Shown here: positions 6,602 to 43,402 of the stretch, one piece after another
Layout: each line of letters opens with the position of its first letter
Position numbering within the stretch: the stretch's first letter is position 1
Origin: Acinetobacter phage AM106
Sequence record: MH115576.1
Strand: one strand, 5' to 3'
DNA: 52,031 nt
The notes under the pieces: model-generated
What the model saw: the letters and a program-made list of their open reading frames with translations, nothing else
Databases searched by the model: none
What the model was told of the DNA's origin: nothing
Program-made: the position numbers and the translations under genes

Positions 6602-6832
6602 ATGACTATGACAAACGCTGAATTAGAGAATGAAATCAAAGCTCTAAAAACTCAAATTACATCTCTTCAAGGAACTGTTAGCAATAAAGCTGATGCTACA
6701 GCAGTAAGTGCTTTGAATGCCCGAGTTACTAGTGTGGAAGGTGTAAATACAAGCCAAGGTAATTCAATCACTACTTTGAATAATGGCTTAAATGCAGTTT
6801 CGACACGTGTTACTGCATTAGAAAATAAATAA
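6602..6832 (+). CDS. Small coiled-coil protein paralogous to the repeat unit of the giant tail fibre J ('KADATAVSALNARVTSVEGVNTSQGNSITTLNNGL')
   Basis: 76 aa; the same motif (KADxxALNxLxxRVxxxEGxITSQGNSITxL) recurs 8-9 times in the 30088-40557 protein; own RBS; flanked by two near-identical terminators. Confidence 0.5.
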   Translation: MTMTNAELENEIKALKTQITSLQGTVSNKADATAVSALNARVTSVEGVNTSQGNSITTLNNGLNAVSTRVTALENK

Positions 6833-6839
6833 ATAAAAA

Positions 6840-6871
6840 ACTCGGTCCCAAATGGAGACCGAGTTTTTTTA
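6840..6871 (+). terminator. Rho-independent terminator (stem CTCGGTC..GACCGAG + T7), near-duplicate of the one at 6541
   Basis: Hairpin plus T-run read directly. Confidence 0.6.
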
Positions 6872-7017
6872 TATCGAGTAAAACTGGGGACGAAGTACTG
6901 CGGTAACAGCACTTCGACCTCCTGACAGATGTAGCCTGCCAAAAGCCAAGCCCAGCTATCGTGCACACGATTTGCGAAGGCTATCAAAAATATAAGCTTT
7001 TGCACAGGAAAATTTTT

Positions 7018-18802: not shown

Positions 18803-19142
18803 CTTTAGTGTTGATGTGGTGAAAAATGCTGAAGAACAAGTAAAGAAAATCACGATGGATACCGTGCAATCACTTGTAGTTTCGAGTCCAGTTGATACAG
18901 GTGCTTACAGAGCTTCTCATATCGTATCTATTGGAACTGCTGATTATGGTGTTCGTGAACCATCAACTAATCCAGTTCAAGATGCAGCAGTTCAAGCAGT
19001 CAAGTTTAAGCTTGGAAATCTGATCTTTATTCAAAACAACAAAGCCTATGGTCCGCGATTAGAAAACGGTTGGTCTGATCAAGCACCTCTTGGTATTTAC
19101 AGCACTACTTTCACTTACATTACTCAAAAATATGGTGGCTAA
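18774..19142 (+). CDS. HK97 gp10-like tail/head-tail component
   Basis: 'SSPVDTGAYRASHIVSIG' resembles the gp10-family DTGNLRRS motif. Confidence 0.45.
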   Translation: MGWKGKKPTSFSVDVVKNAEEQVKKITMDTVQSLVVSSPVDTGAYRASHIVSIGTADYGVREPSTNPVQDAAVQAVKFKLGNLIFIQNNKAYGPRLENGWSDQAPLGIYSTTFTYITQKYGG

Positions 19143-19143
19143 G

Positions 19144-19542
19144 ATGCCAATGACATTAGAGCAAGCTAGACAAGCAATAGTCGACCGTATGATGGCCTTT
19201 ACAGGAATTTCTCAAGAAAGAATCCATTATCCAAATGCACCAGGCTTCTTAGCACCAGCAAAGGGCTTATGGTGCCGCTTAACCATTAAATGGGGTCCAA
19301 GTTTCATTGCTGGGTTAGCCGATACACCCTGTACTCGACGTACTGGGAATATCTTGATTCAATGCTTTGCAAGACCAGACACGGGAGACCAGGCAATAAC
19401 CATTCTAAGTGTTGCATTACTTTCACATTTTGAATATTTCAGGATTGGGCATTTAGAATGCTTTCAAGGTCAAACGATAGATGCGGGTAAAGATGCTGAC
19501 TTTCTGCAGTACAATGTGACGATTGGATTTACGGTGAATTGA
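19144..19542 (+). CDS. Putative tail terminator/completion protein
   Basis: ATG 19144 two nt after upstream stop; position before the major tail protein. Confidence 0.3.
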   Translation: MPMTLEQARQAIVDRMMAFTGISQERIHYPNAPGFLAPAKGLWCRLTIKWGPSFIAGLADTPCTRRTGNILIQCFARPDTGDQAITILSVALLSHFEYFRIGHLECFQGQTIDAGKDADFLQYNVTIGFTVN

Positions 19543-19543
19543 T

Positions 19544-19756
19544 ATGTCTTACATGCTGACGCTAGAAGAAATTGAAATTAAAAAACAAGAGCTTGAACGA
19601 CACTTGGCAGATGTAATGGCTAAGGAGCTAAGTAAATGGCAGTTGTCTAATAAATTATGTATTTCTGATGTAAAAATTCGCCTCGCTAATGTTAATAGCA
19701 TAAATGGACCAAATTTAAATATTGTTACTGGAGTAAGTGTTGATTTGGATGATTGA
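19544..19756 (+). CDS. Hypothetical protein
   Basis: 70 aa coupled ORF. Confidence 0.25.
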   Translation: MSYMLTLEEIEIKKQELERHLADVMAKELSKWQLSNKLCISDVKIRLANVNSINGPNLNIVTGVSVDLDD

Positions 19757-19775
19757 TATTAAGTTTTAAAGAAGT

Positions 19776-19800
19776 TACCGCCTGAGGGCGGTTTTTTTAC
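19776..19800 (+). terminator. Rho-independent terminator (ACCGCC..GGCGGT + T7)
   Basis: Read directly. Confidence 0.6.
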
Positions 19801-19814
19801 GTCCCTAATTTTAT

Positions 19815-19840
19815 AGCCACCTTCGGGTGGCTTTTTTTAT
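19815..19840 (+). terminator. Second tandem terminator (AGCCACC..GGTGGCT + T8)
   Basis: Read directly. Confidence 0.6.
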
Positions 19841-19863
19841 GCCTAACGTCGGAGTATATAGAT

Positions 19864-20793
19864 ATGTCGAGTGGTGCACGTCAGATAACACAAATCGCGA
19901 AGGAAACCACTGTTGGTACCACACCTTCACCCTTCGCACGTACGACCTTTGAATTTACTGAAAATGGCCTTGATGCGACAGTAACAAAGGAAGACTCTAA
20001 CTCAATCACAAGTGGCCGTATTGCACGTTCATCAATGATTACCGGTGCAGAGTATGCCGGTGAATTAAAATGTGAAGCGAAGTACAGTTCATTAGTTCAA
20101 GACTTAATGGCTGCAGCTGCTTTTAATAACTGGTCGTCAAATGTATTAACTTTTGGTGGCACACTTCGTCAAACATTTTCTGTTTTACGTGGCTTTGAAG
20201 ATGTTAATGACTACCATGTTTTCCGTGGATGTCATGTAAACACTTTTGGAATTGATATTCCTGAAGCTGGCTTAATTACAATGACTTTCGGCCTTATGGC
20301 TCTTGGTCGTACAAACTTTTCTTCAGCACCGGCTGGAACAATTACAGCGGCAGATAACAATCCTAAAATGTCGAATGTCTCTGTAGGTGACATTTTAATT
20401 GACGGCGTTTCTCAAGCTGGGATTTCATGCTTGACCGCTTTTACATTTAATTGGGATAACACTATGCAGCTACAACGCTGTTTAGGTGGTGGTATTGATG
20501 CACGTGCAATCCTAGAAATGCTTGCAACAGGTACAGGTTCATTTACCGCAGCTTGGTCACGCAATACATCCTATATGTATGAAAAGCAATTCACTAACAA
20601 AACGATTTCATTAAAAGTTCCAATCACTGATACAGATGGGAATAAATATGAAATTTTTATTCCTAAAGCTGAAATTACTGCCCCATTACCTAGTGGTGGT
20701 AATTCAGATCTTTTAAATGCTTCATTCGAATATAAAGTCGTTGAAGTAGCCCCAACCATCACTCGTACACCAGCAGCAGTTCCTGCGCCTTAA
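19864..20793 (+). CDS. Major tail (tube) protein
   Basis: 309 aa, position before chaperone and tape measure; flanked by terminators. Confidence 0.55.
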   Translation: MSSGARQITQIAKETTVGTTPSPFARTTFEFTENGLDATVTKEDSNSITSGRIARSSMITGAEYAGELKCEAKYSSLVQDLMAAAAFNNWSSNVLTFGGTLRQTFSVLRGFEDVNDYHVFRGCHVNTFGIDIPEAGLITMTFGLMALGRTNFSSAPAGTITAADNNPKMSNVSVGDILIDGVSQAGISCLTAFTFNWDNTMQLQRCLGGGIDARAILEMLATGTGSFTAAWSRNTSYMYEKQFTNKTISLKVPITDTDGNKYEIFIPKAEITAPLPSGGNSDLLNASFEYKVVEVAPTITRTPAAVPAP

Positions 20794-20803
20794 TCAATCT
20801 GAT

Positions 20804-20827
20804 AGCAGCCTTAGGGCTGCTTTTTTG
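20804..20827 (+). terminator. Rho-independent terminator
   Basis: GCAGCC..GGCTGC + T6. Confidence 0.6.
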
Positions 20828-20836
20828 GAGTTTAAA

Positions 20837-21370
20837 ATGGCTTTAAAAGTAAGCATTCAGACTAGTAAAACAGTTAGTAAATGGCGTAAGTATATTGATG
20901 GTGAAGGGAATGTATTAGCTGAATTTAAAGTACGTGGTATCTCATATAAACCATATCAAGTGGCCCTTGAGCGTGCAAATAATCAGATTGCATCAAAAGG
21001 TTATGATGTAACTAAAGCTAGTAAAGACGACAAGCTATATCATGAATTGCTTCTTGAAGCTGCGGCCTGCCATTTAATTGAGGACTGGAAAGGCGTAGTT
21101 TTTGAAGAAGTAACCGAAAATCAAGAACTGATTGTGTCTGAACCAGAATATTCGCAGGAAAATGCAATTAAGTTGTTGAATCTAGGCGATCTTGGTGTGG
21201 CAATTTGGTTGTTTGTGAGACAAGAGGCGGAAAATATCCAAAAAGAAGCTGATGCATATAAGGATGAAGTAGTGGGAAAGTCATTAACCTCTACAACTGG
21301 ACCAAGTTCAACTCAGAAGAAGAAGCGAGCGACTACAACAAGAAACAAACAGCAATTGCAAAAGCCTTAA
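20837..21370 (+). CDS. Tail assembly chaperone (lambda gpG-like)
   Basis: ATG 20837; position; contains the GGGAAAG slip site near its 3' end. Confidence 0.55.
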   Translation: MALKVSIQTSKTVSKWRKYIDGEGNVLAEFKVRGISYKPYQVALERANNQIASKGYDVTKASKDDKLYHELLLEAAACHLIEDWKGVVFEEVTENQELIVSEPEYSQENAIKLLNLGDLGVAIWLFVRQEAENIQKEADAYKDEVVGKSLTSTTGPSSTQKKKRATTTRNKQQLQKP

Positions 21371-21633
21371 ATTTAAAAATAGCTGAAACCATTCAAAAGC
21401 CTGAATACTCATTTACAGCCAATGCCATTCTTTCAGCATATAACGTAATTTCCCGTTCAAGGCGTTATGAGCAAGGCATTCCCTTGGCTTTGGATATTGC
21501 AGCTATATCTGCCTATTGTGATCATTATGAGATCCCAGTCGAAAGAGATATTTTTAACGACTGTATCTTTGCAATGGATAATATTTTTCTGGATGATTCT
21601 CACAAAAAAATGAAGCGTCCAACAAAAAAATAA
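21274..21633 (+). CDS. -1 frameshift extension (gpGT-like): slip at G GGA AAG (21274-21280), then about 117 codons open in the -1 frame to TAA at 21631-21633
   Basis: Heptamer identical to lambda G/GT slippery sequence; -1 frame opens at 21268 and has no stop for 360 nt while the 0 frame stops at 21370. Confidence 0.5.
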   Translation, partial: GKVINLYNWTKFNSEEEASDYNKKQTAIAKALNLKIAETIQKPEYSFTANAILSAYNVISRSRRYEQGIPLALDIAAISAYCDHYEIPVERDIFNDCIFAMDNIFLDDSHKKMKRPTKK

Positions 21634-21673
21634 CCCTAGAGGTATTTACTAAAAATAACTCTAGGGTTATAAT
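21632..21673 (+). promoter_or_regulatory. hicAB promoter/operator: -35 TTTACT (21645-50), 17-nt spacer, -10 TATAAT (21668-73), embedded in a perfect 10-bp inverted repeat AACCCTAGAG / CTCTAGGGTT (21632-41 / 21659-68)
   Basis: Read directly. Confidence 0.5.
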
Positions 21674-21701
21674 TGACTCATCAAGTTAACAAGGGGACGG
21701 T

Positions 21702-21884
21702 GTGAAAAGTCTGGATTTAGTCAAAATGATTGAAGCAGACGGTTGGTACTTAGTTAGGGTTAAAGGAAGTCATCATCACTTCAAACATCCAACTAAAGGG
21801 GGCTTAGTTACTATCCCTCACCCAAAAAAGGAATTACCAAGCGGAACTGTTAAAAGCATTTTGAAGCAAGCGGGTCTAAATTGA
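21702..21884 (+). CDS. hicA: HicA toxin (mRNA interferase)
   Basis: 'LVRVKGSHHHFKHPTKGGLVTIPHPKKELPSGTVKSILKQAGL' is the HicA signature; GTG start with RBS AAGGGGA. Confidence 0.8.
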   Translation: MKSLDLVKMIEADGWYLVRVKGSHHHFKHPTKGGLVTIPHPKKELPSGTVKSILKQAGLN

Positions 21885-21948
21885 CCCGCTTCAATCAGAC
21901 TCATATAGTCCTATTTCACAGTACGATTTTGTACAAGAGGTGAGTGCA

Positions 21949-22353
21949 ATGTTGTATCCAATTGCTATAGAAAGAGGTAACGACACCGAGGCTTATGGTG
22001 TTACTGTTCCAGATATTCCAGGTTGTTTTAGTGCTGGCGACACTTTAGATGAAGCTATCGAGAACGTAAAAGAGGCTATTTCTGGCCATCTAGAAATCCT
22101 TGCTGAAGATGGCGAGGAGATTCCATTAGCATCTGATGTAAGTAAGTTTATAGATGATGCTGACTATAAAGGAATGATCTGGGCAGTTACAGAAGTTGAT
22201 GTTAGTCGTTACTTAGGTAAGCCAGAAAAAATCAATGTCACTTTACCAAGTCGTTTAATTCATATAATTGATGAAAATGTAGGTAAAGGAAAAAGATTTA
22301 AAACCCGATCTGCATTTTTGGCCGCTGGTGCTGAAAAGCTACTACATGCTTAA
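21949..22353 (+). CDS. hicB: HicB antitoxin with C-terminal RHH DNA-binding domain
   Basis: 'MLYPIAIERGNDTEAYGVTVPDIPGCFSAGDTLDEAIENVKEAI' HicB/UPF0150 fold; C-terminal 'INVTLPSRLIHIIDE..' RHH. Confidence 0.75.
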   Translation: MLYPIAIERGNDTEAYGVTVPDIPGCFSAGDTLDEAIENVKEAISGHLEILAEDGEEIPLASDVSKFIDDADYKGMIWAVTEVDVSRYLGKPEKINVTLPSRLIHIIDENVGKGKRFKTRSAFLAAGAEKLLHA

Positions 22354-22361
22354 AATAGAGA

Positions 22362-22388
22362 GGCCACTCAATCGAGTGGCTTTTTTAT
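22362..22388 (+). terminator. Rho-independent terminator after hicB
   Basis: GCCACTC..GAGTGGC + T7. Confidence 0.6.
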
Positions 22389-22448
22389 TTCCCACCTGTT
22401 AAATTTAACTTATTAAAAACGATGGACTTTACAAGAAACGGTGAAATT

Positions 22449-22967
22449 ATGCAGAAGTTCTTAGCAGTAGGGGTATTTAGTTTAGGATTAGCAGGGTGTA
22501 TGACACCAATAACTCCTACACAGCAGGCTATGCCAGAGATATCACAAGTAATAGAAGTGCCAAATAAATCGAAAGATCAGATATTTGAAGATTCAAAGAT
22601 ATGGATCGCTCAATCATTCAAATCTGCAAATAATGTCATTCAGTATGCTGACAAAAGCACAGGTTCTATTATTGGGAAAGGGAATATACAGTACCCTTGT
22701 GATGGATTTATAGATTGTGGTGCTTTTGGAAATGATAGAGTTAATTTTACAATCAAAATTGATACTAAAGATAGTAAAGCAAGAGTAACGATTAATGATG
22801 TAACTAGAACAAATCTGACGTATGTTCAAGGTGGTGTGAACAACCTAGGGAAAGAAGTCCCTATCACAATTCTGCAGCATCAACAAAAAATTGCTGTAAA
22901 ACTTAATAATGTAATTGACCAATACAAGTCAGCAATTACATCGACTAAGGCTAATGAAAACTGGTAG
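22449..22967 (+). CDS. Lipoprotein of unknown function (lipobox LAGC), moron in tail module
   Basis: 'MQKFLAVGVFSLGLAGC' signal peptide; 172 aa. Confidence 0.5.
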   Translation: MQKFLAVGVFSLGLAGCMTPITPTQQAMPEISQVIEVPNKSKDQIFEDSKIWIAQSFKSANNVIQYADKSTGSIIGKGNIQYPCDGFIDCGAFGNDRVNFTIKIDTKDSKARVTINDVTRTNLTYVQGGVNNLGKEVPITILQHQQKIAVKLNNVIDQYKSAITSTKANENW

Positions 22968-23016
22968 CCAATAGTCAACAAAATTTGAACGCATCGTAAG
23001 TATTACTTAATTAAAA

Positions 23017-23043
23017 AACCCACTCACTGAGTGGGTTTTTTAT
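23017..23043 (+). terminator. Rho-independent terminator
   Basis: ACCCACTCA..TGAGTGGGT + T7. Confidence 0.6.
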
Positions 23044-23063
23044 TGCCTGGAGAAAAGTTAAAG

Positions 23064-26000
23064 ATGACTCAAGAATCACGTCTAGTCATTACTATTGATT
23101 CGAAAAATGCGGAACGAAACGCAAGAAATCTAGGCAATGAACTCGACAGCATAGAAAAGAAAGGGGACTTTGCATCAAAGTCCATGGATAGTTTGTCTGT
23201 AGCAACAAGAGCACTTGCTGGACACATGGCAGGTCTTGTTACAGTTGGCGCGGCTATATCCAAAATGGATGAGTATACAGGCTTACAGAACAGACTTAAG
23301 TTAGTAACCAAGAATCAAGTTGAGCTAAATAAAGCAACTGAAGATACATTTAGAATTGCTCAAAAAACTTATGCGACATGGAATTCGGTTTTGCAGGTCT
23401 ACCAGCGTTTTAGTGACAATGCGAAAACACTAAACATAAACATGGACGAAACGGCCCGCTTAACTGAAACAGTATCGAAAGCTGTTGCAATTAGTGGAGC
23501 AAGTGCTCAAGCAGCTGATGCAGCACTAGTACAATTTGGGCAGGCATTGGCTAGTGGAACACTTAGAGGTGAAGAGCTTAACTCTGTGATGGAGCAAACC
23601 CCTGCTTTAGCAAAAGCGATCGCACAAGGGATGGGTATTACTGTAGGGCAACTACGTTCAGTTGCTGCTGAAGGGAAGATTACATCAAAAGAAATTGTTA
23701 AGGCCCTTAAAAATGTTCAAGATGACGTTGATGCTCTTTTTGCAAAAACAGATATCACTATCGGTCAATCACTCACTCTTTTAAACAACGAGATCACAAA
23801 ATTTGTCGGCGAGTCAGGTAAGGGAAGCGGTGCGGCTCATGTGCTTGCTGATTCGATTCAGCTTCTTGCATCAAATTTAAAGTTGATTTCTGATGGAGCA
23901 CTGGTGTTAGGGATTGGACTTGTAACTAAGGCAATCGCTACTAAAACCGTTGCGGTATATGCCGATGTTGCAGCAACTGCCGCAAATGTAAAAGCAAGCA
24001 AAGAAAAGGTTATTGCAGACGCAGCTGAAGCAGCCGCTGCTGTAAAAACAGCACAGGCGCAAATAGCAAATTCACAAGCAACATTGCAAGTTCTAGCCGC
24101 TGAAAAAGCATTAGAAGTTGAACGACTAAAAGCCCAAATGAATGCGGTCGGTCGCACACAATCAATTACGCGTATGGCCGAATTAAAGAAAATTGAGGCT
24201 CAGGTAACGCGAGAATTAGCTGCTGCTGAAACAGCATTAGCAGCTGCTCAAACTAAGGCCAATGCCACAAAAGTGACAGCCTTAACAACATTAGGACGAC
24301 TTGGAAAAGGAGCTTTAGGACTTGTTGGTGGACCAATTGGTGCACTCGCTTTGGGCGTTTCAGCCTTGGCCGCAACATACACTTATTTTAAAGACAAGGC
24401 AGAGGAGGCAAATAGGAAGCTCGAGGAGCAAGCTGCGGTGGCTAATCGATCAGCCACGGAGTTGAAAAATTTGCAAGGTCAAGCCAAAACAGACGCAATT
24501 AAAGACTTAACAACCGCATTCAAGGCTCAAAATGATGAGCTTACAAAGATGGAATATCGGGTAGGTTCTGCGTTAATCGACATTCAGAATTATGCACAAG
24601 GAAATGCTGAAGTAGCTCGGATTTCAAATGAAGCACGTTTAGGAACCATTAGTTATCAAGAAGCTTTGAAACAACTAGCGAAAGTGAAATTACCACCTAG
24701 CTTAAGACAGGCACTTGAAGAACAAATTGAAAAATATAAGGATGCATACGATAAAGCCGATAAGACCAAAACAGCAATTAAATTGTTTGGTATTGAAGTA
24801 ACCATATCTGGTAATAAGGCTCAGAATGCAGCTATTGAACAGCAAAAACATGCTGATGCAATTAAAAATACAAAACAAGCAGCAGATGAGGCGCAAAAGT
24901 CACTGAAAGAAATGTATGATCAAAAAAACTTAGATACTGATTTTTTAACGATCAACATTAAAAGTCATGGACTGGAAATGGGTAAGGCGTTATCAGATTT
25001 TTACGATAACAACAAAATCCCTAAAACTCGCAGTTTAACTAAAGATGAATGGGCAATATTCCAAAAAAACTTTGATAAGGTGCAAGAGCTTAAAAAGCTT
25101 GAGGAGGATATTACCGCTTCTAAGAGACAGCAAACCAAGGAACTTGAGAAACAGCAAAAAGTTTTAGCTGTTAACTCCCAAGTTAAATCTAACGCCTCAA
25201 AGTATAATTTTTCCGATCTTGAATCTAAATATGACTTATTGCCTGGCCTGCTATCAGCAATCAACATGCAAGAAAGCAGGGGTGATGCAAACGTTATTGG
25301 TCCGAATACAAAATACGGGAAAGCCAAAGGTGGGTTCCAGATGTTGGATGGTACCGCTAAGCGGTGGGGATTAGTTGGTAAAGAAGTTTTTGATACTGGT
25401 AAAGCTGCAGAAGCAGCTGCGAAATATCTTAACTTTTTATTTAAAAAGTTCGGCAATTGGGATCAAGCAATTTCTGCCTATCATGCTGGTGAAGGTAACG
25501 TAGAAAAAGGTACTAATATTGGTCCTGTAAATAGACAGTACGTTAAAAACGTTAAAGGATATATTGCTGGATCAAATGGTTTTGATATGAAAGGAGTCTC
25601 TGAAAAAGATTTCGATTCCTACCTTAATCAATTTCTTAAAACGCAAGAGGAAACTGAAAAGCTACGTGATCAGTATCGAGATAAAGATACGCTTGCAGAG
25701 AAAGAATATTTAAAAAGAATTGGTGAGTTAAAGTTACATTTTAAAGATGCAGAGTTAAAGCAACTCACGGATAAAGAAACAGCACGTTACAATGCTCAAA
25801 AGGAGTTAAACGCTGAACAACTTGAATTTGAATTAAATGAGTTCCGTTTAAATGAAGTTCAAAAGCTGGAAAAACAAAAGCAGATTAAATTACTTCAAAT
25901 CAAAGCATCAACTGATTACTCTGAAACTGAAAAAGAAATTCGAATCAAAGCTGTTAATACAATGTTTGATTATGAAATTTCTGAGTACAGAAAACTCCAA

Positions 26001-27032
26001 AAGCAAAAATTGGAGGAGTATCGAAAAACAATGTATGAGCAAGCCTCAATACCACAATCAGATGTTATTAATTTACTAGCTAAAAAGAACCTAACTTCTT
26101 CGCAATATGATTCATGGAATCTACAGAATCAATATAGTGATGAAATGCAGAATGCTAATGATACATATTCCTCAAATGTTAAAGCAGTTTCAGAAGATAA
26201 AACAATTGTTGATGAAGAAAAGCGATTCCAAGCTTTATTAGAGGCTGAAGAACTTTTCCGTCAGCAAAAGTTTGCTATTAATGAAAAATACACTTTGATG
26301 GAACAAGAGCTTCAGAAGTCATCTCGGCAGACAGAAATAGAAATTTATGGGCAATTATTATCCCAAGCGTCAAGCGTATGGGGAAATATGACAGCAATGG
26401 TAAAAGAGTCTGCTGGTGAACAATCCGCTGCTTATAAGGCAATGTTTTTGGTACAGCAAGCCATGGCAATGGGGACTGCAACGATTCAAGCATATCAAGC
26501 CTACAGTAATGTATTAGCTAATGCGCCTTATCCATTAAATATGACTATGGCTCCTATTGCTCTTGGGCTTGGTATGGCTAATGTCGGCTTAATTGCAGCC
26601 CAAACAATTGCTGGCTTCTCTGATGGCGGTTATACCGGTAATGGTCTTAAACACACTCCTGCAGGGATTGTGCATAAAGGTGAGGTTGTTTGGTCGCAAG
26701 AAGATATTAAACGCTGGGGTGGTGTTAGCGTTGTTGAAAGTATGCGTCAAAGCAATCCAAGTGGTTATGCGAACGGAGGTTACGTTTCTAATAATCAGTC
26801 TGATGCTATTGCAATACGTAGAGAGTCTAGACAGTTTGAGGCAATCAACTCTAATCAATCTCAATTGAATACGAACGAAAAGCCAATAAATGTGTATGTC
26901 ACTGTTAATGCCGATGGCACAAGTAAAACAGAGACAGAAAACGACTCAAAACAATTGGGCCAAATGATTGGTAATGCAGTAAGAACTATTATTCGCCAGG
27001 AACAAAGACAAGGTGGTTTGTTATCTAAGTAA
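23064..27032 (+). CDS. Tail tape measure protein with internal SLT lytic transglycosylase domain
   Basis: 1322 aa, Ala-rich helical N-terminal two-thirds; 'NMQESRGDANV...GGFQM...ISAYHAGEGNV' SLT motifs at about 25230-25560; ATG 23064 with RBS GGAGAAAAG. Confidence 0.85.
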   Translation: MTQESRLVITIDSKNAERNARNLGNELDSIEKKGDFASKSMDSLSVATRALAGHMAGLVTVGAAISKMDEYTGLQNRLKLVTKNQVELNKATEDTFRIAQKTYATWNSVLQVYQRFSDNAKTLNINMDETARLTETVSKAVAISGASAQAADAALVQFGQALASGTLRGEELNSVMEQTPALAKAIAQGMGITVGQLRSVAAEGKITSKEIVKALKNVQDDVDALFAKTDITIGQSLTLLNNEITKFVGESGKGSGAAHVLADSIQLLASNLKLISDGALVLGIGLVTKAIATKTVAVYADVAATAANVKASKEKVIADAAEAAAAVKTAQAQIANSQATLQVLAAEKALEVERLKAQMNAVGRTQSITRMAELKKIEAQVTRELAAAETALAAAQTKANATKVTALTTLGRLGKGALGLVGGPIGALALGVSALAATYTYFKDKAEEANRKLEEQAAVANRSATELKNLQGQAKTDAIKDLTTAFKAQNDELTKMEYRVGSALIDIQNYAQGNAEVARISNEARLGTISYQEALKQLAKVKLPPSLRQALEEQIEKYKDAYDKADKTKTAIKLFGIEVTISGNKAQNAAIEQQKHADAIKNTKQAADEAQKSLKEMYDQKNLDTDFLTINIKSHGLEMGKALSDFYDNNKIPKTRSLTKDEWAIFQKNFDKVQELKKLEEDITASKRQQTKELEKQQKVLAVNSQVKSNASKYNFSDLESKYDLLPGLLSAINMQESRGDANVIGPNTKYGKAKGGFQMLDGTAKRWGLVGKEVFDTGKAAEAAAKYLNFLFKKFGNWDQAISAYHAGEGNVEKGTNIGPVNRQYVKNVKGYIAGSNGFDMKGVSEKDFDSYLNQFLKTQEETEKLRDQYRDKDTLAEKEYLKRIGELKLHFKDAELKQLTDKETARYNAQKELNAEQLEFELNEFRLNEVQKLEKQKQIKLLQIKASTDYSETEKEIRIKAVNTMFDYEISEYRKLQKQKLEEYRKTMYEQASIPQSDVINLLAKKNLTSSQYDSWNLQNQYSDEMQNANDTYSSNVKAVSEDKTIVDEEKRFQALLEAEELFRQQKFAINEKYTLMEQELQKSSRQTEIEIYGQLLSQASSVWGNMTAMVKESAGEQSAAYKAMFLVQQAMAMGTATIQAYQAYSNVLANAPYPLNMTMAPIALGLGMANVGLIAAQTIAGFSDGGYTGNGLKHTPAGIVHKGEVVWSQEDIKRWGGVSVVESMRQSNPSGYANGGYVSNNQSDAIAIRRESRQFEAINSNQSQLNTNEKPINVYVTVNADGTSKTETENDSKQLGQMIGNAVRTIIRQEQRQGGLLSK

Positions 27033-27111
27033 CGCCTGAACTGTTTCCACTTTTCCGTTAATTGGGGTATAGTTTAATTAATATGGTCATACTTTAGTTA
27101 TGGTCCTTAAA

Positions 27112-27137
27112 AGCTCGCTTAATGCGGGCTTTTTTTG
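27112..27137 (+). terminator. Rho-independent terminator
   Basis: Imperfect 7-bp stem + T8. Confidence 0.45.
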
Positions 27138-27149
27138 TGAGAAATAATC

Positions 27150-27491
27150 ATGAGTGACTTAAAATTTACCTTTGAGTGTGATCTTGAAGGTAATAATCAA
27201 ACCCAACGTTTTAATACGTTATCAACAAAATTTGGTGACGGATATGAACAAAATACTTCAATTGGTATAAACAATCGATCTGGTGAATGGACCTATCAGC
27301 GCACAGCTAAGAAAGCTGAAATTTTGGAAATTAAAGCATTCTTTGATAAGCACAAGGGTGCTAATTCTTTTCTATGGGATTCGCCGTTAGATGGTGAAGT
27401 GCGCGTTAAAGCAGGGGATTATCAACCAGTTTGCTTGGGTGGAGATACGTGGCGCATTACAACCACATTTACTCAAGTTTTCTATCCATAA
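27150..27491 (+). CDS. Minor tail protein, lambda gpM-like
   Basis: 113 aa; 'FGDGYEQ' and 'SFLWDSP' match gpM landmarks (FGDGYSQ / SFLWTPP). Confidence 0.6.
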   Translation: MSDLKFTFECDLEGNNQTQRFNTLSTKFGDGYEQNTSIGINNRSGEWTYQRTAKKAEILEIKAFFDKHKGANSFLWDSPLDGEVRVKAGDYQPVCLGGDTWRITTTFTQVFYP

Positions 27492-27502
27492 TTTTTTCTC
27501 AA

Positions 27503-30087: not shown

Positions 30088-33000
30088 ATGGCGATTGTAA
30101 AAGGCGCGAAAAAGGGCAAAGGTGAGGCAAGAAAACCTGTAGTTGCTCCAGATTCCGCACAATCTAAAACCTATATAAAAATCTTATATGGTTTAGGTGA
30201 AGGCGAAATTGAAGGATTAGCCAATGGCAATCAATCAATATTTCTTGAAGGAACTCCACTACAAGATGCCAATGGGAATCTGAATTATTCAAACGTAAAA
30301 CTAGATTTCCGTAAAGGAACTAATGATCAAGATTACATTGAAGGTTTTCCTTCAGTAGAAAGTGAAACTGCTGTCGATGTCGAATTGAAGTCAGGTGCTC
30401 CATGGGTACGAGCTTTTAATAATATTGATCTTGATGCCGTTCGTATTCGCTTAAAGTGGGGACCACTTCGCCAGCAGGACTCAAGCACTGGTGATGTTAG
30501 TGGTATAACAATTGAATATGCTATCGATATACAAACTGACGGTGGTGCCTGGACAGAAGTATTAAAAACAAAAATATCCGATAAGACTTCTGCAAATTAT
30601 GAACGAGCTCACCGTATTGATTTACCAAAGGCCGATAGTGGTTGGTTAATCCGGGTACGTCGCATTACACCTAATTCAACCTCTGAGTTTGTAAGCGACA
30701 AAATGTATGTTGAGGCATTTACTGAAGTTGTTGATGCAAAATTAAGATACCCAAATACGGCATTATTAGGTCTGCAATATGATGCCGAAACTTTTGGAAA
30801 TGTGGCGAAATTAGCTGTAGATCTGAAAGGTCGATTGCTTTTAGTACCAACCAATTACAACCCGCAAACGCGACAATATACTGGAATTTGGGATGGTACT
30901 TTTAAAAGAGCTTACACAAATAACCCGGCATGGATTTACTACGACCTTTGTACAAATGATCGTTATGGTTTAGGAAATCGCTTAACCCCATTCATGATTG
31001 ATAAATGGTCTTTGTACCGTTTAGCTCAATACTGCGATCAAAGCGTTTCCGACGGACTTGGCGGCCAAGAACCTAGATTTACATGTAATGTGTACATTCA
31101 AAATGCTGAAGATGCTTTCAGTATATTAATGAAATTGGCTGGTGTCTTTCGAGCGATTGCCTTCTGGGATGGTACAAGCATTATATGTGATGCCGATATA
31201 CCACAAGACACATATTTCACCTATACCCGTGCAAATGTGGTTGGTGGTGTTTTCGAATACTCAGGAACACGTGCACGTGATCGGCATAATGTAGTTAAGG
31301 TTGCGTGGGATAATCCTGCAAATCACTATAAAACAGAATACGAATTTGTTCGCGATGAAAATGCTATTGCTGAGTCTGGCCAAGTACGCATTCTTGAATT
31401 AGATGCGTGGGGATGTACTTCTCGTGGCCAGGCTCAACGTGCAGGCCACTGGGCTTTAAAATCCGAGCAAAAGGAGACTCGTACAGTTTCGTTTAAAGTC
31501 GGTTTAGATGGGCATATTCCACTGCCAGGAAGAGTAATTGAAATTGCGGATGAACTGTTTGCAGGACGTGCTAATGGCGGACGTGTATCTAAAATTTCTG
31601 CTGATCTCAAAAGCATAACCATTGATCGAGATGACGTTATTGCTAAAGCTGGTGATCGTCTGGTTATCAATGGCGAAAATGGCAAAGCACAAACGCGAAT
31701 TGTTCAGTCGATCTCTGGTCGGGTTATCACAGTAACACTTCCATTCGATGAGAATTCAATTGCTGTACAAAACGTATGGGTTCTTGATGCTCAAGATTTA
31801 GCGACAATGAAGTTCCGCGTAATTTCAATCTCGCAAGAAGAAAAACACCAATTTAGCATTACAGCGCTTCAGTACAACCCGCAAAAATTTGATGAAATTG
31901 ATAACGGGGCATTCTTTGAAGATGCACCTATTTCAATTATTAATCCTTCAATCCAGGAACCGGTTAAAGATGTTTTGATTACGACTGAAAGTCGTGTTGA
32001 TCAGGGTATTAATATCACCACAATGATTGTGTCTTGGATGCAAGCGAAAGGTGCCGTTAAGTATCTGGTTGAGTGGCGAAAAGATGATGGATCGTGGATC
32101 CGGTTACCGCAAACAGGAAATAATTCAGTCGAGGTACCTGGTGTTTATTCAGGTCAATATCAAGCTCGTGTTACCGCAATTTCTGCTTTTGAAATCGCAT
32201 CTTTACCGGTTACATCTTCCTTAACTGAAATTACTGGAAAGCAGGGATTACCGCCGAAAATAGCTTTTATACGTGCCACAGGTATTTTGTTTGGAATGAA
32301 GCTTGATTGGGGATTCCCTCCAACAGGTGCAAAAGATACAGCTTATACCGAAATTGAAGTTTCACCTGATGGCATCAACAATATTGCTCAATTAGGATTG
32401 TTTGCATATCCGACTACCACTACCACAATCCAAGGTTTACAACCTAATCTTAGACAGTTTTATCGCGGTCGATTAATTGACCGGATTGGCAATGTTGGTC
32501 CTTGGTCTGAATGGGTCAATGGTACGACCACAGCAGATCCGGAAGCGGTTCTTGATCTTATTTCTGGTCATATTAATGAGAGTGATCTTGCCCAAGAGCT
32601 TCAAGGTAAAATTGAAAATTCAGTCGATGTATCTGAAGCAGCCCAAGCTGCAGCAAATAATGCCCAAGCTGTTGCTAGTAGCGCCCAAACTGCAGCTAAC
32701 AATGCCCAGGCTGTGGCCTCTGAAGCTAAGACGGCGGCCTCGAGTGCTCAATCGGCAGCAACCACTGCTCAAACACAAGCTTCTTCAGCCCAAAAAATAG
32801 CAAATGATGCGAGTGTTATAGCGACCAATGCTAAAAATACTGCTGATCAGGCAGCTGAAGATGCGTCTTCAGCAATAACGGCAGCAGCAGAAGCAAAAAC
32901 TACTGCTACTAATGCGAATACGACCGCAACGAATGCACAAACAACCGCAAATAATGCTTCTTCGGCAGCATCAAAAGTTGCTTCAGATTTAACAACCTCA

Positions 33001-36000
33001 ACAAATCAGTTGAATAAGAAAATCGCTGATGAAACTGATGCACGCACAGCGGCAATTTCTAAACTGAATGATGGTCTCACCACAGAAACGTCTCAGCGCA
33101 AGTCAGAAGATGCTGCACTGTTAAACAATATTGAGACTTATAAGTCGAGCACCAATGGCACTTTGTCTAGTCTGCAAACGCAAATTAATACCAACGCGAC
33201 AAATACAAGTGCAAATACATCAAAAATTTCTTCGCTTGACTCTCGTTTAACCACAAACGAAGGCAAAACCGCAGATGCGATTAATGCAGCGGCAACAGCT
33301 CAACAAACTGCCAATACCGCCGTTACTAATGCGGCAGCAGCAGCTTCGGCAGTTACCTCACTAAAATCAGAGTTGAGTACAGGCAAAGGCATCAACAATA
33401 TCATTGCGCCTTTTTCTGATCCGCAAGAACTATCACCTTACATTATCGGTGCGTCGAGAACCGTTGCCTTAGTAAAATCACCAATGCGTATTAAGGGTAA
33501 TGCTTATGACGTTACATTTAATGCGGTGGCTGGCAGTATTTATTTTGGTTCCTCGTCACTAGCAACAGTCAATACTGCGGCGGCAGGTGTTGTCAGTGGC
33601 GGAAAGCGTTACATGCTAAGCGCTTATTTAAAGAACCTCGATGCCACTAAACAGGCAGATGTTTACTTTACATTGCATTGGTTTAAACGTGCAGCAAACG
33701 GCACTTTCACGGCTTCTCAAAGTGTTTTATTAAATCAGGCAACTAACAACACACGAGTAACACCTTCAAACGACGGCGGTACAATTAGCTGTAAAGCTGT
33801 AGCAGCACCACCAGATGCAGTTGCCTTTGCGGTTATCTGTTCTGGCAACGGCGTTTATAACGTCGCTGGTTCACGCATTCTCATTGACATGTTAATGCTT
33901 GAAGAGGTCGTTGGTGTCGATGTACCTGCTTCAACATGGACAGCAGGACCAACTGATTTAAGTGCTATTAAATCCGCTCTTGATGCCAATGCTTCTGCTA
34001 TTAGCAAAATCGATACCCGTGTAACAAATGCCGAAGGCACCATTACAAGCCAAGGCAATTCAATTACTCAATTGAATAACAGCGTTACGTCAATCAATGG
34101 CGAACTTACGAAGAAAGCTGATGCTACGGCTTTAAATGCCTTAACCAACCGAGTATCGACAGCAGAAGGCACAATTACAAGTCAAGGCAATTCAATTACG
34201 TCTTTACGTAATGATTTAAACGCAACCAATGACAAGGTTTCGTCAAAAGCGGACTCAAGTGCATTAAATTCCTTAGATTCTAAGGTTACAAGCATTGATG
34301 GAAGAGTAACTAGCAATACGAGTGCTGTGACCTCATTGCAAGGTCGTGTTTCAACCGTCGAGGGTGGACTTTCATCGAAAGCAGATGCCTCGGCATTAAA
34401 CAATTACTACACCAAAACAGAGGCGGATTCTGCCGCTTCTGGCGCAATCGACAAGTTCAACAGTCAATTGACGATTGGTGGTGTAAACGTTGTTGCGAAC
34501 TCCGAAGCTCCTCGCACTTCAACTGCCGCAACGAATCGCGAATATTTACTGTATGAACGTAGCGCCGAATTAAAAGCGTTCTATGACGAAAACCTTGAGA
34601 AGCCAATCACGATTTCGTTTGAAATGAGCGTTCCTGTGGCTGGACCGGTTCAAGTTTATTCGTCAAATGGTTCTGCTCACCAATTCGTTACTTCCGTTAA
34701 TGCAATTATCGTAAATCAATTTGCCAAATATTCAGTAACAGTTAGTCCAAAAGCGCATACGGCAAGTACAACTGTTTCGACAATTGAGTTCTATGGAACG
34801 TATGGAACTGGCCGTATCCCGACGATTCGTAAATTACAAATTGAAGCGGGCACAAAGGCTACCGCTTGGAGTCCAAGCCCTCGTGATACAAAGGCTGCAA
34901 TTGACGCCAATGCTTCTGCAATTCAAACGACCCAAACAAAAGTTGACAATATCGATGGTCGGCTAACCACTGCTACAGATTCGATTACGTCACTAAATTC
35001 GCGCATGTCTACAGCCGAAGGAAATATCAACAGCACAAATACTGCGGTTGGTGGACTTTCGACACGCATGGCAACCGCTGAGGGCAAGATCACCAATCAA
35101 AGTGATTCAATTGCATCGCTACAAAATAGCGTCACCTCAATCAATGGAACACTGGCAAACAAAGCCGATTCAAGCGCGGTCAATAACTTAACTAGCCGAG
35201 TGGAAACAGCCGAGGGCAAGATTTCAAGTCAAAGCGGGCAGATTACTTCGCTTAGCAATAGCCTTGATCTAACAAACAGTAACTTGAACGACGTAAACGT
35301 TCTGGCGCGACTGTTATCTCTTGGCAAGCCTCTACGCGACGATCCAACTTTTAAATCAACCACAGGCGGGTTGGCTGCTTACGCCTTGCAGTCTGGCTCT
35401 TCATTTACAAGACAAGCCAAATCAACAGACAACCCAATGGACAGCGCTTATGAAATGTTATTGCGCGCCACAACCACGCTTGGTTCGGGATGGTACCCAA
35501 ACAACCCAACTGTAAACGGCGGTCCTAATAAAGCATTCTTAGTGAAACAAGTAATTAAGATGCCAATTGGCCAAAAACTCGCCGCGTTTAACAATCCTTT
35601 GGGAGCTGGTGGTTATGTACGCATTTTAGGTAATGCAGAAGGTACGGGTAAATTTGAAACTTATTATTCCGTTATTCAGTGCGGTCCTGATGCCAATACG
35701 GCTATTCAAGGACACTTTAGAGTAATTAACAGCTCTAATCCACCAGTGCCTTCAGCAAGCAACCCAGTTGATGTAATTCTCGCTTCATACGAAGTGTTTG
35801 ATGTTACGGCTGTAAACGACACCATTCCAAAAGCTTATAGCAATGCTATTGCAGCCAATGCGAATGCGATTAACACCCTATCAAATACAGTCAGCCAGCA
35901 GGGTAATACCATTACTTCCCATAGTAATTCTATTACCCAACTCAACAACAGCATTTCAAGCATTAATGGCGCACTTTCGAGTAAAGCGGATACGAGCGCA

Positions 36001-39000
36001 TTACAGTCACTTGATTCAAAAGTAACCCTAATCGACGGCAAAGTTACATCTAACTCTTCTGCATTAACCGCATTACAAAGCAGCTTTGATGGGTTGCCGA
36101 ATCAGGGCGTGAACTTGCTTGGCCCTGAGATTTCAAATCCAGTAGAAAAGCCAACCAACTGGACGTCTGGATTGCCATTTGAAATCATCCAATCGCCAGA
36201 TACGGTAAATGTACGCGCGTTCCAATTCACGATGCCTGCTTCTTCAGGGAACGGCACATACTTCAATATTGGCGGAGGGCAGGTTCCACGCCAATGGCTG
36301 ACAGAAGGAAAGTACATCTTTAGTTTTGTTGCCAAAACTGTTGGCGGAACCCCACCGCATGCTATTGAGTGGCAACTCTACAATGTAGATAGTACACGCC
36401 TGCGCTTTAATATTACCGCAACATTAACCCGCTATAGCGGGGTGTTCACGGTGCCCGCTGGTGGTGCCGCTGCATGTATGCTGTTAATCGGAAACCCTAC
36501 AGGCAAACCTGCGGGACAAGTTATCAATATCGAAAGAATGATGCTTGAACGGCAAGTTGGCAACAACACAACCCCTTCGGCTTGGATTGCAGGTAGCGAC
36601 CCAACCGGAATGATTCTTTCAACGCAAGCCAAGGCGACTGATTTATTCAACACAGCCACTAGCCAAAACGCCGCGACTGCGGGACGCGTCACTAGCCTCG
36701 AAAGTCGCATGACGACCACAGAAGGCAATTTAAACAAAAAGGCTGATGCTTCTGCGCTTCAAAACCTCGACACGAAAGTTACGAATGTCGATGGCAAAGT
36801 AACGTCAAATACCAATGCCATTACAGCTTTAAGTTCAACTTTAAGCAACGCTACTTCAAGCATTTCAATGAATGCGGGTAATGCACAGGGCGATTGGACA
36901 TTCTTTAATACGTCAGGCGAATACTCAATTGTTGCACAAGCGGATGGCCAAGCGGGTCGTGTTATTCAACTTGGAAATAATGCTGGCAATGATATTGTTT
37001 GGATGCATCCGAATAACTTCATTCCTTTTGATGCAACTAAGACATATCGACTTCGTGCGCGGTATCGCCGTCGTGCCGGAACAGGCACAATTTACCTCGG
37101 TGTCTCTCAGAAAACCCCAGACAAGGCACTATACGTAACAACAGCCAACGCATTATCGGGCGACATGGGATCTTCTAACTATGTCGTTAATGCCCACGCG
37201 CCTGCGATCGATGAATGGCAAGAAATCGTTGCGTATATCAAAGGTCGATCAGCAGGAGCGGCATCAGGTTCAGGCTCAAAAACAAGCCCACGTACTGTTT
37301 CACAACAAGCAGGCTTCATCACGCCGATGTTTATTGCAAACTATTCGGCGCAAACGGGCATTGTTGAGCTTGATTACCTAATTCTGGAAGATGCAGAGGC
37401 AATTGTTGCCAATGATGCAAATGCATCAGCGATTAGCGCTCTTGATACCAAAGTATCAGAAGTTGATGGACGCTTAACGACAGCAACAAATTCAATCACT
37501 TCGCTTAACTCTCGTATGAGTGCGGCAGAAGGGAATATCTCAGCGGCAAACTCGGCTCTAAGCGGGCTTTCGACAAGAATGACGGCTGCTGAAAATGGTT
37601 TAACAAATCAAAGCAACGCGATTACTAATTTAAGTAACAGCTTGACGGTTACAACCAATACAGCCAACGCTGCATTGCCAAAGATTCAGGGCGGCACTGG
37701 CGCAGCTAAGTTATTTAGAGGCGTGCTGGTGTGGCAACAAAACGGCGCAAATCTAACTGGCAATATCGTAATCCAAACGCCAATTACGTTCACAAATAAA
37801 ATGTTCCGACTTTCACTTACTGGCTATAACTACTTGGCCGCTAAGAATGAAATTAATCTGAACATTGGGGGTTATGCATATTCGGGCACCTCTCTACTTC
37901 AACATGGTGTAGTGAATTCGGGCACCATGCCAATTCGAGTTCGCATGGGCGTCCGTAATGGCACAGTAGTCATTATTTTGACGTCCCAAGCGCCCGGTGC
38001 TTATTGGCAGTATCCAAAATTCAACATTGATGCCGAAATCGGCTATACAACTCCGCCAGACGAATGGATGAATGGTTGGTCTGCAAGCTTCATGGCAGAG
38101 GCAGACCTCGCATCTAATGGCATTTCGGCGATCATTGAGCCGTCTTTATTAGACATTTCAACAACGCTTAATGCCACTGCATCTGCAATTAGCAATCTGA
38201 CAAATACTGTGTCTCAACAGGGTAATACAATTACTTCACAAAGTAATTCTATTACCACCTTAACCAACAAGATTACTAACAACGATTTATCGAATCTTGT
38301 TCTTAATCCTGATTTCGTAGACCCGAAAAGCGATTGGACATCTGGCGTAATTGTTGATGCGACTGACGCAGCACCTAACCCTCCTTCTGCAAAAGCATTA
38401 AGACTGAATAACCGCGATAGTTATTACGGTCCTTTCGTCAAATGTAATGTTGGCGACATGTTCTATGTTTCGGCTTGGTTTGCGACGCCAAATACATCAG
38501 CAACCGCTTCTGCCGTGCTTGGTTTCAATACTCGGAACAGCGCAGGCACTTATACATGGTATAGCGTTGCCATTAAGTCTACGGACAAAAATGCTTGGGG
38601 TATGGTGGAAGGTTATTTCACTGTGCCAAATGGCATGGTTGATATTCGACCTTGGCTTCAAGTAAGTATAGCTGCGTCAGAAGCAGCGGGGCAGCAATGG
38701 CATGTTACGAACATTCAAGTACGTAACATTACAGGTAATAAGAAATTAGCAACCGACTTGCAAGCAACCTCGTCTGCATTAAGTACGCTTGATTCCAAAG
38801 TTACAAACATTGACGGCCGTGTAACTTCCGCATCTAACAATATTGTTTCGCTCAACAATAGCGTCACAAACATCAATGCCACCCTTGCTCAAAAGGCAGA
38901 TGCGACAGCGTTAAATTCGCTCTCTAACCGCGTAACAAATGCAGAAGGAAATATCACAAGCCAAGGTAACTCAATTACCTCATTGACTAACTCATTAGCA

Positions 39001-43207: not shown

Positions 43208-43402
43208 ATGTCTTCACAGTTAATCAAAATTCATTATCATGCATATTCTCGCGTTGCAGATCTATTAGCAGATCTAGATAAGAAAGGAGAGGTCACTAAA
43301 ATTTATGACCTCAATGGCAACGAATTAAAAATTAATTTCTTGCGTGACGAAGTTTATTATAAAAAAGTCTGGTGGCATTTTCAGAAGAAGCAAGGCGGTT
43401 AA
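43208..43402 (+). CDS. Hypothetical protein (moron between lysis cassette and integrase)
   Basis: 64 aa ORF preceded by AT-rich region with palindromic repeats. Confidence 0.3.
   Translation: MSSQLIKIHYHAYSRVADLLADLDKKGEVTKIYDLNGNELKINFLRDEVYYKKVWWHFQKKQGG

Follow-up and report, generated by a model that had tools for sequence, protein, structure and literature searches.

The closest solved relative of the HicA and HicB proteins encoded by a toxin–antitoxin (TA) operon in the 52,031-nt sequence of Acinetobacter phage AM106 (MH115576.1; this whole stretch is hereafter the window) is the HicAB system of Burkholderia pseudomallei (4C26, 6G1N and 6G26), which is likewise arranged toxin-first and is itself prophage-associated, but which differs in host and genomic context. 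In B. pseudomallei HicA, the closest characterised homologue of the toxin, either G22C or H24A abolishes toxicity (PMC3969222). HicA3–HicB3 of Yersinia pestis (4P78) also has a HicB of the ribbon-helix-helix (RHH) type (E = 1e-17), a long spacer between the genes and two operators at the hicA promoter, both of which are bound by HicB3, the main one overlapping the -10 element (PMC11594946); it differs in its HicA, which is weakly similar (E = 3e-4), and in the length of the spacer, which is 174 bp compared with 64 nt in the window. The HicA^T^B system of IncI2 mcr-1 plasmids carries a "noncanonical intrinsic terminator" (Lin et al. 2025, PMC11878559), and deletion of this hairpin changes the hicA:hicB mRNA ratio from 10:1 to equal and abolishes plasmid competition (PMC11878559). 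Finally, the structural module of phage YMC11/11/R3177 (R3177) has already been reported to carry a HicAB cassette (Turner et al. 2017, PMC5795418).

Comparison of the window with these systems leads us to consider it likely that the locus comprises a toxin-first type II HicAB operon and a separate DUF4468 lipoprotein gene, both carried as prophage cargo, with hicAB serving addiction or competition. A preliminary description of the sequence had proposed hicAB and lipoprotein cargo; this is correct but known, and is not of a new kind. In NCBI, sequences identical to HicA and HicB of the window already bear these names (132 and 75 contigs, respectively), near-identical phages annotate the proteins as toxin, HicB-like or moron, and prophage HicAB cassettes are common, so that the cassette has little weight as a discovery. 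What the comparisons appear to add are refinements rather than a new kind of system, namely a putative two-site operator with a family-wide half-site, and a stop-codon hairpin that is predicted well beyond IncI2 plasmids.

The hicA and hicB genes

The two genes are adjacent and co-oriented, with the toxin gene first, behind one promoter with conserved operator-like palindromes, and the GTG start of hicA is preceded by AAGGGGA (coordinates of all features are given in Table 1). HicA matched the Pfam family HicA_toxin (PF07927) over residues 5–59 of 60 (E = 1.2e-25; 89.8 bits against a cut-off of 27) and matched B. pseudomallei HicA 4C26 over its full length (E = 3e-24). Gly22 and His24 are both kept, the segment KGSHHHF lining up with TGSAHHF in 4C26, an H24A mutant. 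HicB matched HicB_lk_antitox (PF15919; E = 9e-46, 155.5 bits) over residues 3–126, and its residues 2–131 aligned to B. pseudomallei HicB 6G1N (E = 7e-31), including the RHH segment INVTLPSRLIHIID…TRSAFLA. These Pfam and PDB matches, together with the presence of Gly22 and His24, bear out the original identification of the pair from the GSHHHF motif of HicA and the N-terminal domain and RHH of HicB.

Against five relatives, both genes were found to be under purifying selection, with ratios of nonsynonymous to synonymous divergence (dN/dS) of 0.06–0.27 for hicA and 0.005–0.09 for hicB. Near-identical cassettes are present in vB_AbaSI_1, phi1_092021 and MD-2021a, while R3177 and its relatives (Vieuvirus) have the same slot, promoter, operators and hairpin, with proteins ~88–92% identical to those of the window. 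The companion genes differ: R3177 and phi1_092021 are without the DUF4468 gene, and phage Gln has four more genes. Synonymous divergence from the closest relatives (loci L003 and L022) was 0.65–0.78 for hicB and 0.25–0.34 for hicA, and that of the lipoprotein gene from L003 was 0.08; this unevenness suggests that alleles may have been exchanged inside the cassette.

According to reviews, an Acinetobacter baumannii HicA/HicB pair, which may or may not be the window's allele, is functional when expressed in E. coli. The same reservation applies to hicAB of A. baumannii ATCC 17978 (A1S_2019/A1S_2020), which is described in reviews as transcribed and antibiotic-induced, and whose hicA, A1S_2020, is listed as prophage-borne (PMC11594946) and was detected by RNA-seq in that strain.

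Promoter and candidate HicB operators

In a scan of 8.5 kb (19000–27500), the promoter PhicA was one of the two joint-best sigma70-like matches, and it is present exactly as first described. The preliminary description had placed it within a 10-bp perfect inverted repeat. This repeat is real and holds the promoter, but its arms are longer, being perfect over 12 bp (ATAACCCTAGAG, 21630–21641, and CTCTAGGGTTAT, 21659–21670) and matching at 17 of 18 positions when extended to 18 nt. For perfect inverted repeats whose arms reach 12 nt or more and whose loops do not exceed 20 nt, the window contains three cases, compared with a mean of 0.09 in random sequences; besides this one, there are two that resemble terminators.

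Both arms of the repeat are palindromic in their own right, matching the 16-bp ATAACnCTAGnGTTAT and giving two sites 25 bp apart, O1 and O2. The palindrome pattern ATAACNCTAGNGTTAT has only these two matches in the window (0.24 expected). In phages Gln and R3177, whose cassettes are ~80% identical to that of the window, the core of O1 (TAACnCTAGnGTTA) is fully symmetric, and in vB_AbaSI_1 two substitutions disrupt the long inverted repeat while leaving both palindromes intact. For these reasons two palindromes are preferred over one long repeat.

Operator conservation was assessed in 80 loci with HicB relatives from reference genomes, which gave 56 non-identical hicA upstream regions. GGGTTAT/ATAACCC was present in 40 of these 56 gammaproteobacterial regions, an 82-fold enrichment over flanking DNA, and GTTATAA in 36. 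A copy of GGGTTAT ~38 nt 5′ of the hicA start, running into GGGTTATAAT, is almost universal in the family. In Moraxellaceae loci the two palindromes keep a constant 25-bp spacing, with one copy always over the -10 element; Vibrio, Shewanella and Enterobacterales loci have another arrangement of the same half-sites, with a -10-centred palindrome (GGGTTATAATAACCC) and direct repeats upstream. In HicB lineages that are more distant, those of IncI2 plasmids among them, the same operator architecture is found with another half-site, GTGTGTAT, unlike the GGGTTAT of the window, and in these lineages the RHH beta-strand reads R(I/V)NITLP instead of KINVTLP.

Because it is the sequence and not the pairing of the repeat that is conserved, and because specificity appears to co-vary with the HicB protein, the comparisons point to a protein-binding site, and the GGGTTAT sites very probably constitute the HicB operator. 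The earlier proposal that the repeat is a HicB operator is upheld to the extent that the half-site is strongly enriched upstream of homologous hicA genes; what changes is that two palindromic sites, rather than one repeat, are the candidates. We regard it as very improbable that the repeat at 21630–21670 acts mainly as RNA, as a 3′ hairpin that terminates or stabilises the chaperone transcript, or as a recombination site at the cassette boundary. In favour of this, the segment has a folding energy of -20.4 kcal/mol as RNA (z = -5.9) with a U-rich stretch after it, and the repeat begins at the stop codon of the chaperone, precisely the point at which homology to phages with different cargo ends. 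By contrast, the motif accompanies hicAB into non-tail and non-phage contexts, the GGGTTAT sequence is conserved where pairing is not, the half-site arrangement of Vibrio and Shewanella cannot form the same hairpin, and the changes in vB_AbaSI_1 break the repeat but keep the palindromes. A family-wide candidate HicB operator, with a GGGTTAT half-site and two sites of which one lies over the -10 element, should be modestly useful.

The association between half-site and beta-strand was also seen in individual loci. Most HicB proteins with GGGTTAT promoters have KINVTLP, and those with GTGTGTAT or ATACAC half-sites mostly have R(I/V)NITLP or RINISLP; among the set compared with the window (L041, L042, L039, L035, L048, L045 and L089), L045 and L048 are exceptions in keeping KINIT. 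The beta-strand could therefore be a determinant of operator specificity.

The hairpin at the hicA stop codon

The stop codon of hicA in the IncI2 plasmid pWH13-4 is spanned by the hairpin GGCGGGGATTTAATCCCCGCC, whose 5′ arm falls in the final hicA codons (…AGL or …AGI). A hairpin in the same position is predicted in the window, where the last hicA codons (…Q-A-G-L) form the 5′ arm; in both systems a G/C-rich hairpin lies at the 3′ end of hicA and the open reading frames do not overlap, although the proteins are 50% (HicA) and 32% (HicB) identical. The preliminary description of the region had overlooked both this conserved hairpin and a promoter-like site in the spacer.

Stop-codon hairpins were also found in homologous loci of Acinetobacter, Psychrobacter, Pasteurellaceae, Enterobacterales and Vibrio. 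Across genera, the hairpin shows compensatory changes where its Ala and Gly codons can vary synonymously, the wobble pair of the Ala codon being G-C, A-U or U-A depending on lineage. The family was realigned with a covariance model built from seven Acinetobacter sequences. In this alignment, whose figures lean toward structure because it was fitted to the model and some of its hits are spurious or on the minus strand, standard pairs made up 97% of cells compared with 87% after shuffling, and both sides had changed in 35 cells compared with 8.3 expected from shuffles. None of 500 shuffles reached the observed value for either measure, and the signal collapsed when partner columns were shifted. 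With RNAalifold no structure was predicted when 51 hairpin regions were aligned by MAFFT without gaps, because variable loop lengths then shift the 3′ arms out of register.

By analogy with the HicA^T^B element, we treat the window hairpin as a candidate attenuator. It agrees with that element in position, and departs from it in the UUU tract and the adjacent ribosome-binding site. The promoter-like site that overlaps the 3′ arm is a possible hicB-only promoter, which if active would give hicB-only transcripts. That hairpins of the IncI2 type are widespread in gammaproteobacterial hicAB loci, phage-borne ones included, is of modest use in its own right.

A further motif, (C)CGACTT (AGACTC in the window, 21897–21902), lies ~6–16 nt after the hicA hairpin and is conserved in Moraxellaceae loci, being present in the homologous spacers of L004, L008, L009, L012 and L017; GACTTT also follows the IncI2 hairpin (L089, 586–596). 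It may belong to the terminator tail, form a -10-proximal element or mark a site of processing.

Cargo slot, lipoprotein and proposed role in the lysogen

The cargo block (21630–23042) sits between the tail chaperone G/GT and tape measure genes, as first described, the phrog_313 and TMP_3 matches of the flanks confirming this position. Homology between cargo variants ends within the last ~40 nt of the chaperone -1 frame. The same slot holds different cargo in phi1_092021, B1251, an A. baylyi prophage and Acba_3, the last of which has a chaperone 99% identical to that of the window (Table 1). Cargo variation and the break at the chaperone end together mark the slot as a cargo hotspot, in which hicAB and the lipoprotein gene are separate modules. 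The hicAB promoter and the two terminators, and the different cargo between the same flanks, support the view that both are accessory (moron) genes in a variable slot, in line with the original suggestion. Pfam searches of hicAB neighbours in five other Acinetobacter loci were uninformative (DUF4882, HTH_36 and one portal protein).

In B1251, a 49-aa open reading frame and an acetyltransferase gene, possibly a GNAT-type TA pair, lie exactly at the position of hicAB in R3177; the cassettes of B1251 and A. baylyi suggest that the slot collects toxin, regulator or defence-like cargo. Acba_3 (L001) has a ~124-nt tandem duplication at 6765–7012, made up of the 3′-terminal part of the chaperone -1 frame and the sequence beyond it. 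This lies exactly at the junction where cargo varies and may be a recombination scar.

The 172-aa lipoprotein gene that had been described 3′ of hicAB is likewise present. Its product matched Pfam DUF4468 (PF14730; E = 8e-18, 65.1 bits against a cut-off of 22.6) and phrog_4002 (E = 2.7e-44), and its signal peptide and lipobox read MQKFLAVGVFSLGLAG|C. Among 42 homologues, G16 and C17 are at least 90% conserved, while C84, C90 and the C-terminal Trp, W172, are invariant. An alternative 181-aa reading from 22422 is unsupported, as homologues begin at the signal peptide MK…. An AlphaFold2 (AF2) model (mean predicted local distance difference test score, pLDDT, 84) adopts a TBP-like/helix-grip fold that matches the DUF4468 structural-genomics structures 4E6F (E = 2e-8) and 4JHY, with a weaker match to the N-domain of the outer-membrane lipoprotein BamC; its viral fold matches in BFVD are uncharacterised siphovirus proteins.

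In E. coli, the residue after the lipid-modified Cys bears on the membrane to which a lipoprotein is sorted, and by this analogy the Met that follows the lipidated Cys suggests an outer-membrane location. Llp of phage T5 and Cor of phages phi80 and N15 are small phage-encoded outer-membrane lipoproteins that block superinfection, and cor is located among tail genes. The listed fold matches in PDB and BFVD, like the hits in Pfam and PHROG, revealed no similarity to Llp or Cor; superinfection exclusion by the DUF4468 protein is, by analogy with Llp and Cor, a reasonable guess. DUF4468 genes recur in the slot, and the protein is a reasonable subject for studies of superinfection exclusion in A. 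baumannii lysogens, which bears on the choice of phages for therapy.

From family membership, the conservation of residues, operators and hairpin, and the variability of the slot, we infer the toxicity, repression, attenuation, lysogen expression and biological role of the cassette as follows. HicA would be a small translation-independent RNase, neutralised by the N-terminal domain of HicB. The RHH domains of HicB would bind O1 at the -35 element and O2 at the -10 element, repressing PhicA, and, as happens with the systems of B. pseudomallei, Y. pestis and E. coli, an excess of HicA would detach HicB from DNA. The stop-codon hairpin may attenuate transcription or translation into hicB and so bias the ratio towards the toxin, a bias that the possible hicB-only promoter in the spacer may offset; the strong terminator would close the operon. 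The second module would be an outer-membrane DUF4468 lipoprotein gene with its own terminator. Expressed from the prophage, hicAB would penalise prophage loss or displacement and may also abort infection by other phages, while the lipoprotein would act as a lysogenic-conversion factor of the cell envelope, possibly in superinfection exclusion.

Several observations weigh against this scheme. Whereas HicA^T^B has a 24-bp spacer, a UUU tract and a hairpin abutting the hicB ribosome-binding site, the U tail of the window hairpin in its 64-nt spacer is only UU (CUUCAAUC; UUCAAUC) and the hicB ribosome-binding site, GAGGTGA, lies ~45 nt 3′ of the hairpin and not directly after it, so that any termination or masking of translation by it may be weak. 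The promoter-like site of the spacer is kept only in close relatives and is weaker or absent further out, its -35 element TTGACC being kept across the Acinetobacter clade and its -10 element not robustly kept in distant loci, and in Y. pestis the hicA-hicB spacer has no constitutive promoter. For the lipoprotein gene, no sigma70-like site of at least 9/12 was found in 22390–22448, and the sequence shared upstream of the DUF4468 gene by relatives (GTGACA-17-TAAAGT) is missing from the window. Its expression in the lysogen is consequently uncertain, and would depend on transcripts that pass the hicAB terminator or on a promoter that escaped recognition. Fold searches in PDB and BFVD gave no functional lead for the lipoprotein beyond DUF4468 and the weak BamC N-domain match, and in the literature searched only two papers mention DUF4468, once each, neither being about the family. 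Finally, no PADLOC model matched the products of hicA, hicB or the lipoprotein gene, which leaves a defence role conjectural.

This last result bears directly on the proposal that hicAB is primarily an abortive-infection defence of the lysogen against other phages, in which infection perturbs the supply of HicB and frees HicA. We consider such a primary role possible, though on balance unlikely. Defence is an established function of TA systems and has been proposed for HicA on the basis of its genetic contexts (PMC10865869, PMC11594946); in relatives the slot holds other nuclease and regulator cargo (NYN RNase, Arc, ORF6N and Ant). However, no HicAB has yet been reported to block a phage, a HicAB-like system of Adephagia is without identified target phages, and the sole functional data on the hairpin-bearing subtype concern replicon competition.

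The cassette might instead serve lytic growth, with the phage HicB as an anti-defence antitoxin against host toxins of the HicA type and hicA as a passenger. Phages do carry antitoxins and mimics that counter TA defences (PMC11594946), a possible hicB-only promoter is present, and the cassette, lying inside the late operon, would be read through in lytic growth if antitermination occurs. Nevertheless, hicA is intact, with its catalytic residues kept and under purifying selection, the toxin-favouring hairpin is conserved, and the module is apparently autoregulated and bracketed by terminators as expected for an independent unit, which together make an anti-defence function highly unlikely.

Prophage cargo with an addiction or competition function thus remains our preferred reading of hicAB. 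An extension of it, in which the slot is a dedicated hotspot of inter-element competition and defence, with the hairpin-biased hicAB as an anti-replacement weapon and DUF4468 as a new exclusion or receptor-masking class, seems to us doubtful. If true, it would make the hicAB stop-codon hairpin a weapon against prophage loss or replacement, a function so far shown only for IncI2 plasmids, and would make the recurrent DUF4468 protein, with its BamC-like helix-grip fold, invariant disulfide pair and C-terminal Trp, a new class of outer-membrane superinfection-exclusion or receptor-masking factors.

Table 1 Features of the hicAB–lipoprotein cargo block, its flanks and the corresponding slot in related phages (positions are those of the window unless another locus is named).
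Feature	Positions	Strand	Description
Tail assembly chaperone G	20837-21370	+	phrog_313, E = 1.4e-52; same gene annotated in relatives; upstream edge of cargo slot
O1, candidate HicB operator	21630-21645		16-bp palindrome (ATAACCCTAGAGGTAT, one mismatch); abuts -35, overlaps chaperone stop codon
PhicA	21645-21673	+	-35 TTTACT 21645-21650, 17-nt spacer, -10 TATAAT 21668-21673; 10/12 consensus
O2, candidate HicB operator	21655-21670		16-bp palindrome (ATAACTCTAGGGTTAT, exact); overlaps -10
hicA	21702-21884	+	GTG start, 60 aa; predicted RNase toxin; GSHHHF at residues 22-27
RNA hairpin	21868-21891	+	AAGCGGGUC-loop-GACCCGCUU; 9 bp; -19.7 kcal/mol, z = -5.7; spans hicA TGA 21882-21884
Promoter-like site	21881-21909	+	TTGACC-17-TATAGT; 10/12 match; -35 within hairpin 3′ arm
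hicB	21949-22353	+	134 aa; predicted antitoxin/repressor, N-terminal HicB fold and C-terminal RHH
hicAB intrinsic terminator	22353-22390	+	Stem core at 22363-22380 followed by UUUUUUAUUU (U-tract); -22.3 kcal/mol, z = -8.1
DUF4468 lipoprotein gene	22449-22967	+	172 aa; signal peptide, lipobox LAGC, Cys17 codon 22497-22499
Downstream terminator hairpin	23012-23042		Perfect 15-nt arms, A-tract before and U-tract after (bidirectional type); -18.3 kcal/mol, z = -5.7; marks cargo end
Tape measure protein	23064-27032	+	TMP_3, E = 2.9e-63, and SLT domain; downstream edge of slot
Tyrosine integrase	43399-44595	-	
S24-peptidase/helix-turn-helix (HTH) repressor	51270-51995	-	CI-like
phi1_092021 slot cargo			hicAB and a different 137-aa gene
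Acba_3 slot cargo			Regulator, DNA-binding protein, Ant, hypothetical proteins, DUF4468 gene; without hicAB
Gln slot cargo			hicAB, DUF4468, four more genes, BRO protein
R3177 slot cargo			hicAB and two other genes
B1251 slot cargo	6562-7272 of L090		49-aa open reading frame and acetyltransferase
A. baylyi prophage slot cargo	2349-5844 of L087		NYN RNase, ORF6N, Arc, DUF4468

The window as a whole represents a temperate A. baumannii siphovirus or prophage, the presence of both an integrase and an S24/HTH repressor indicating the temperate lifestyle; a holin and an endolysin are also encoded. Its region 20800–24000 is 92–97% identical to phages vB_AbaSI_1 (PP359530), phi1_092021 (PQ859669) and MD-2021a. 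Upstream of the cargo, chaperone G is found together with a tail tube gene (Phage_tube_2). The -1 frame of the chaperone is free of stop codons from 21301, if not earlier, as far as a TAA at 21631–21633, which would be the usual G/GT arrangement with a putative frameshift. Further 3′ of the tail genes, a single 3489-aa open reading frame (30088–40557) presumably encodes a giant tail, central-fibre or host-recognition protein.

The hicAB terminator that had been placed at 22362–22388, and a second one after the lipoprotein gene, both proved to be strong hairpins with U-tracts. A pattern scanner overlooked the first on the plus strand, where the fold result was unambiguous, likely because the stem can extend into the U-tract. 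A permissive Rfam search of 21300–23300 gave sub-threshold matches only, driven by the terminator hairpins. Terminator-like hairpins with U-tracts also lie on both sides of the tail tube gene (19777–19832 and 20804–20821), so that late transcription meets at least five such hairpins before the tape measure gene, the two cargo terminators included, an arrangement implying either antitermination or internal promoters. Over their 3′ halves (22374–22392 and 23029–23047), the cargo terminators are 89% identical, reading GAGTGGCTTTTTTATTTCC and GAGTGGGTTTTTTATTGCC, and Acba_3 has a similar terminator, CCCACTCATCGAGTGGGTTTTTT, 3′ of its DUF4468 gene.

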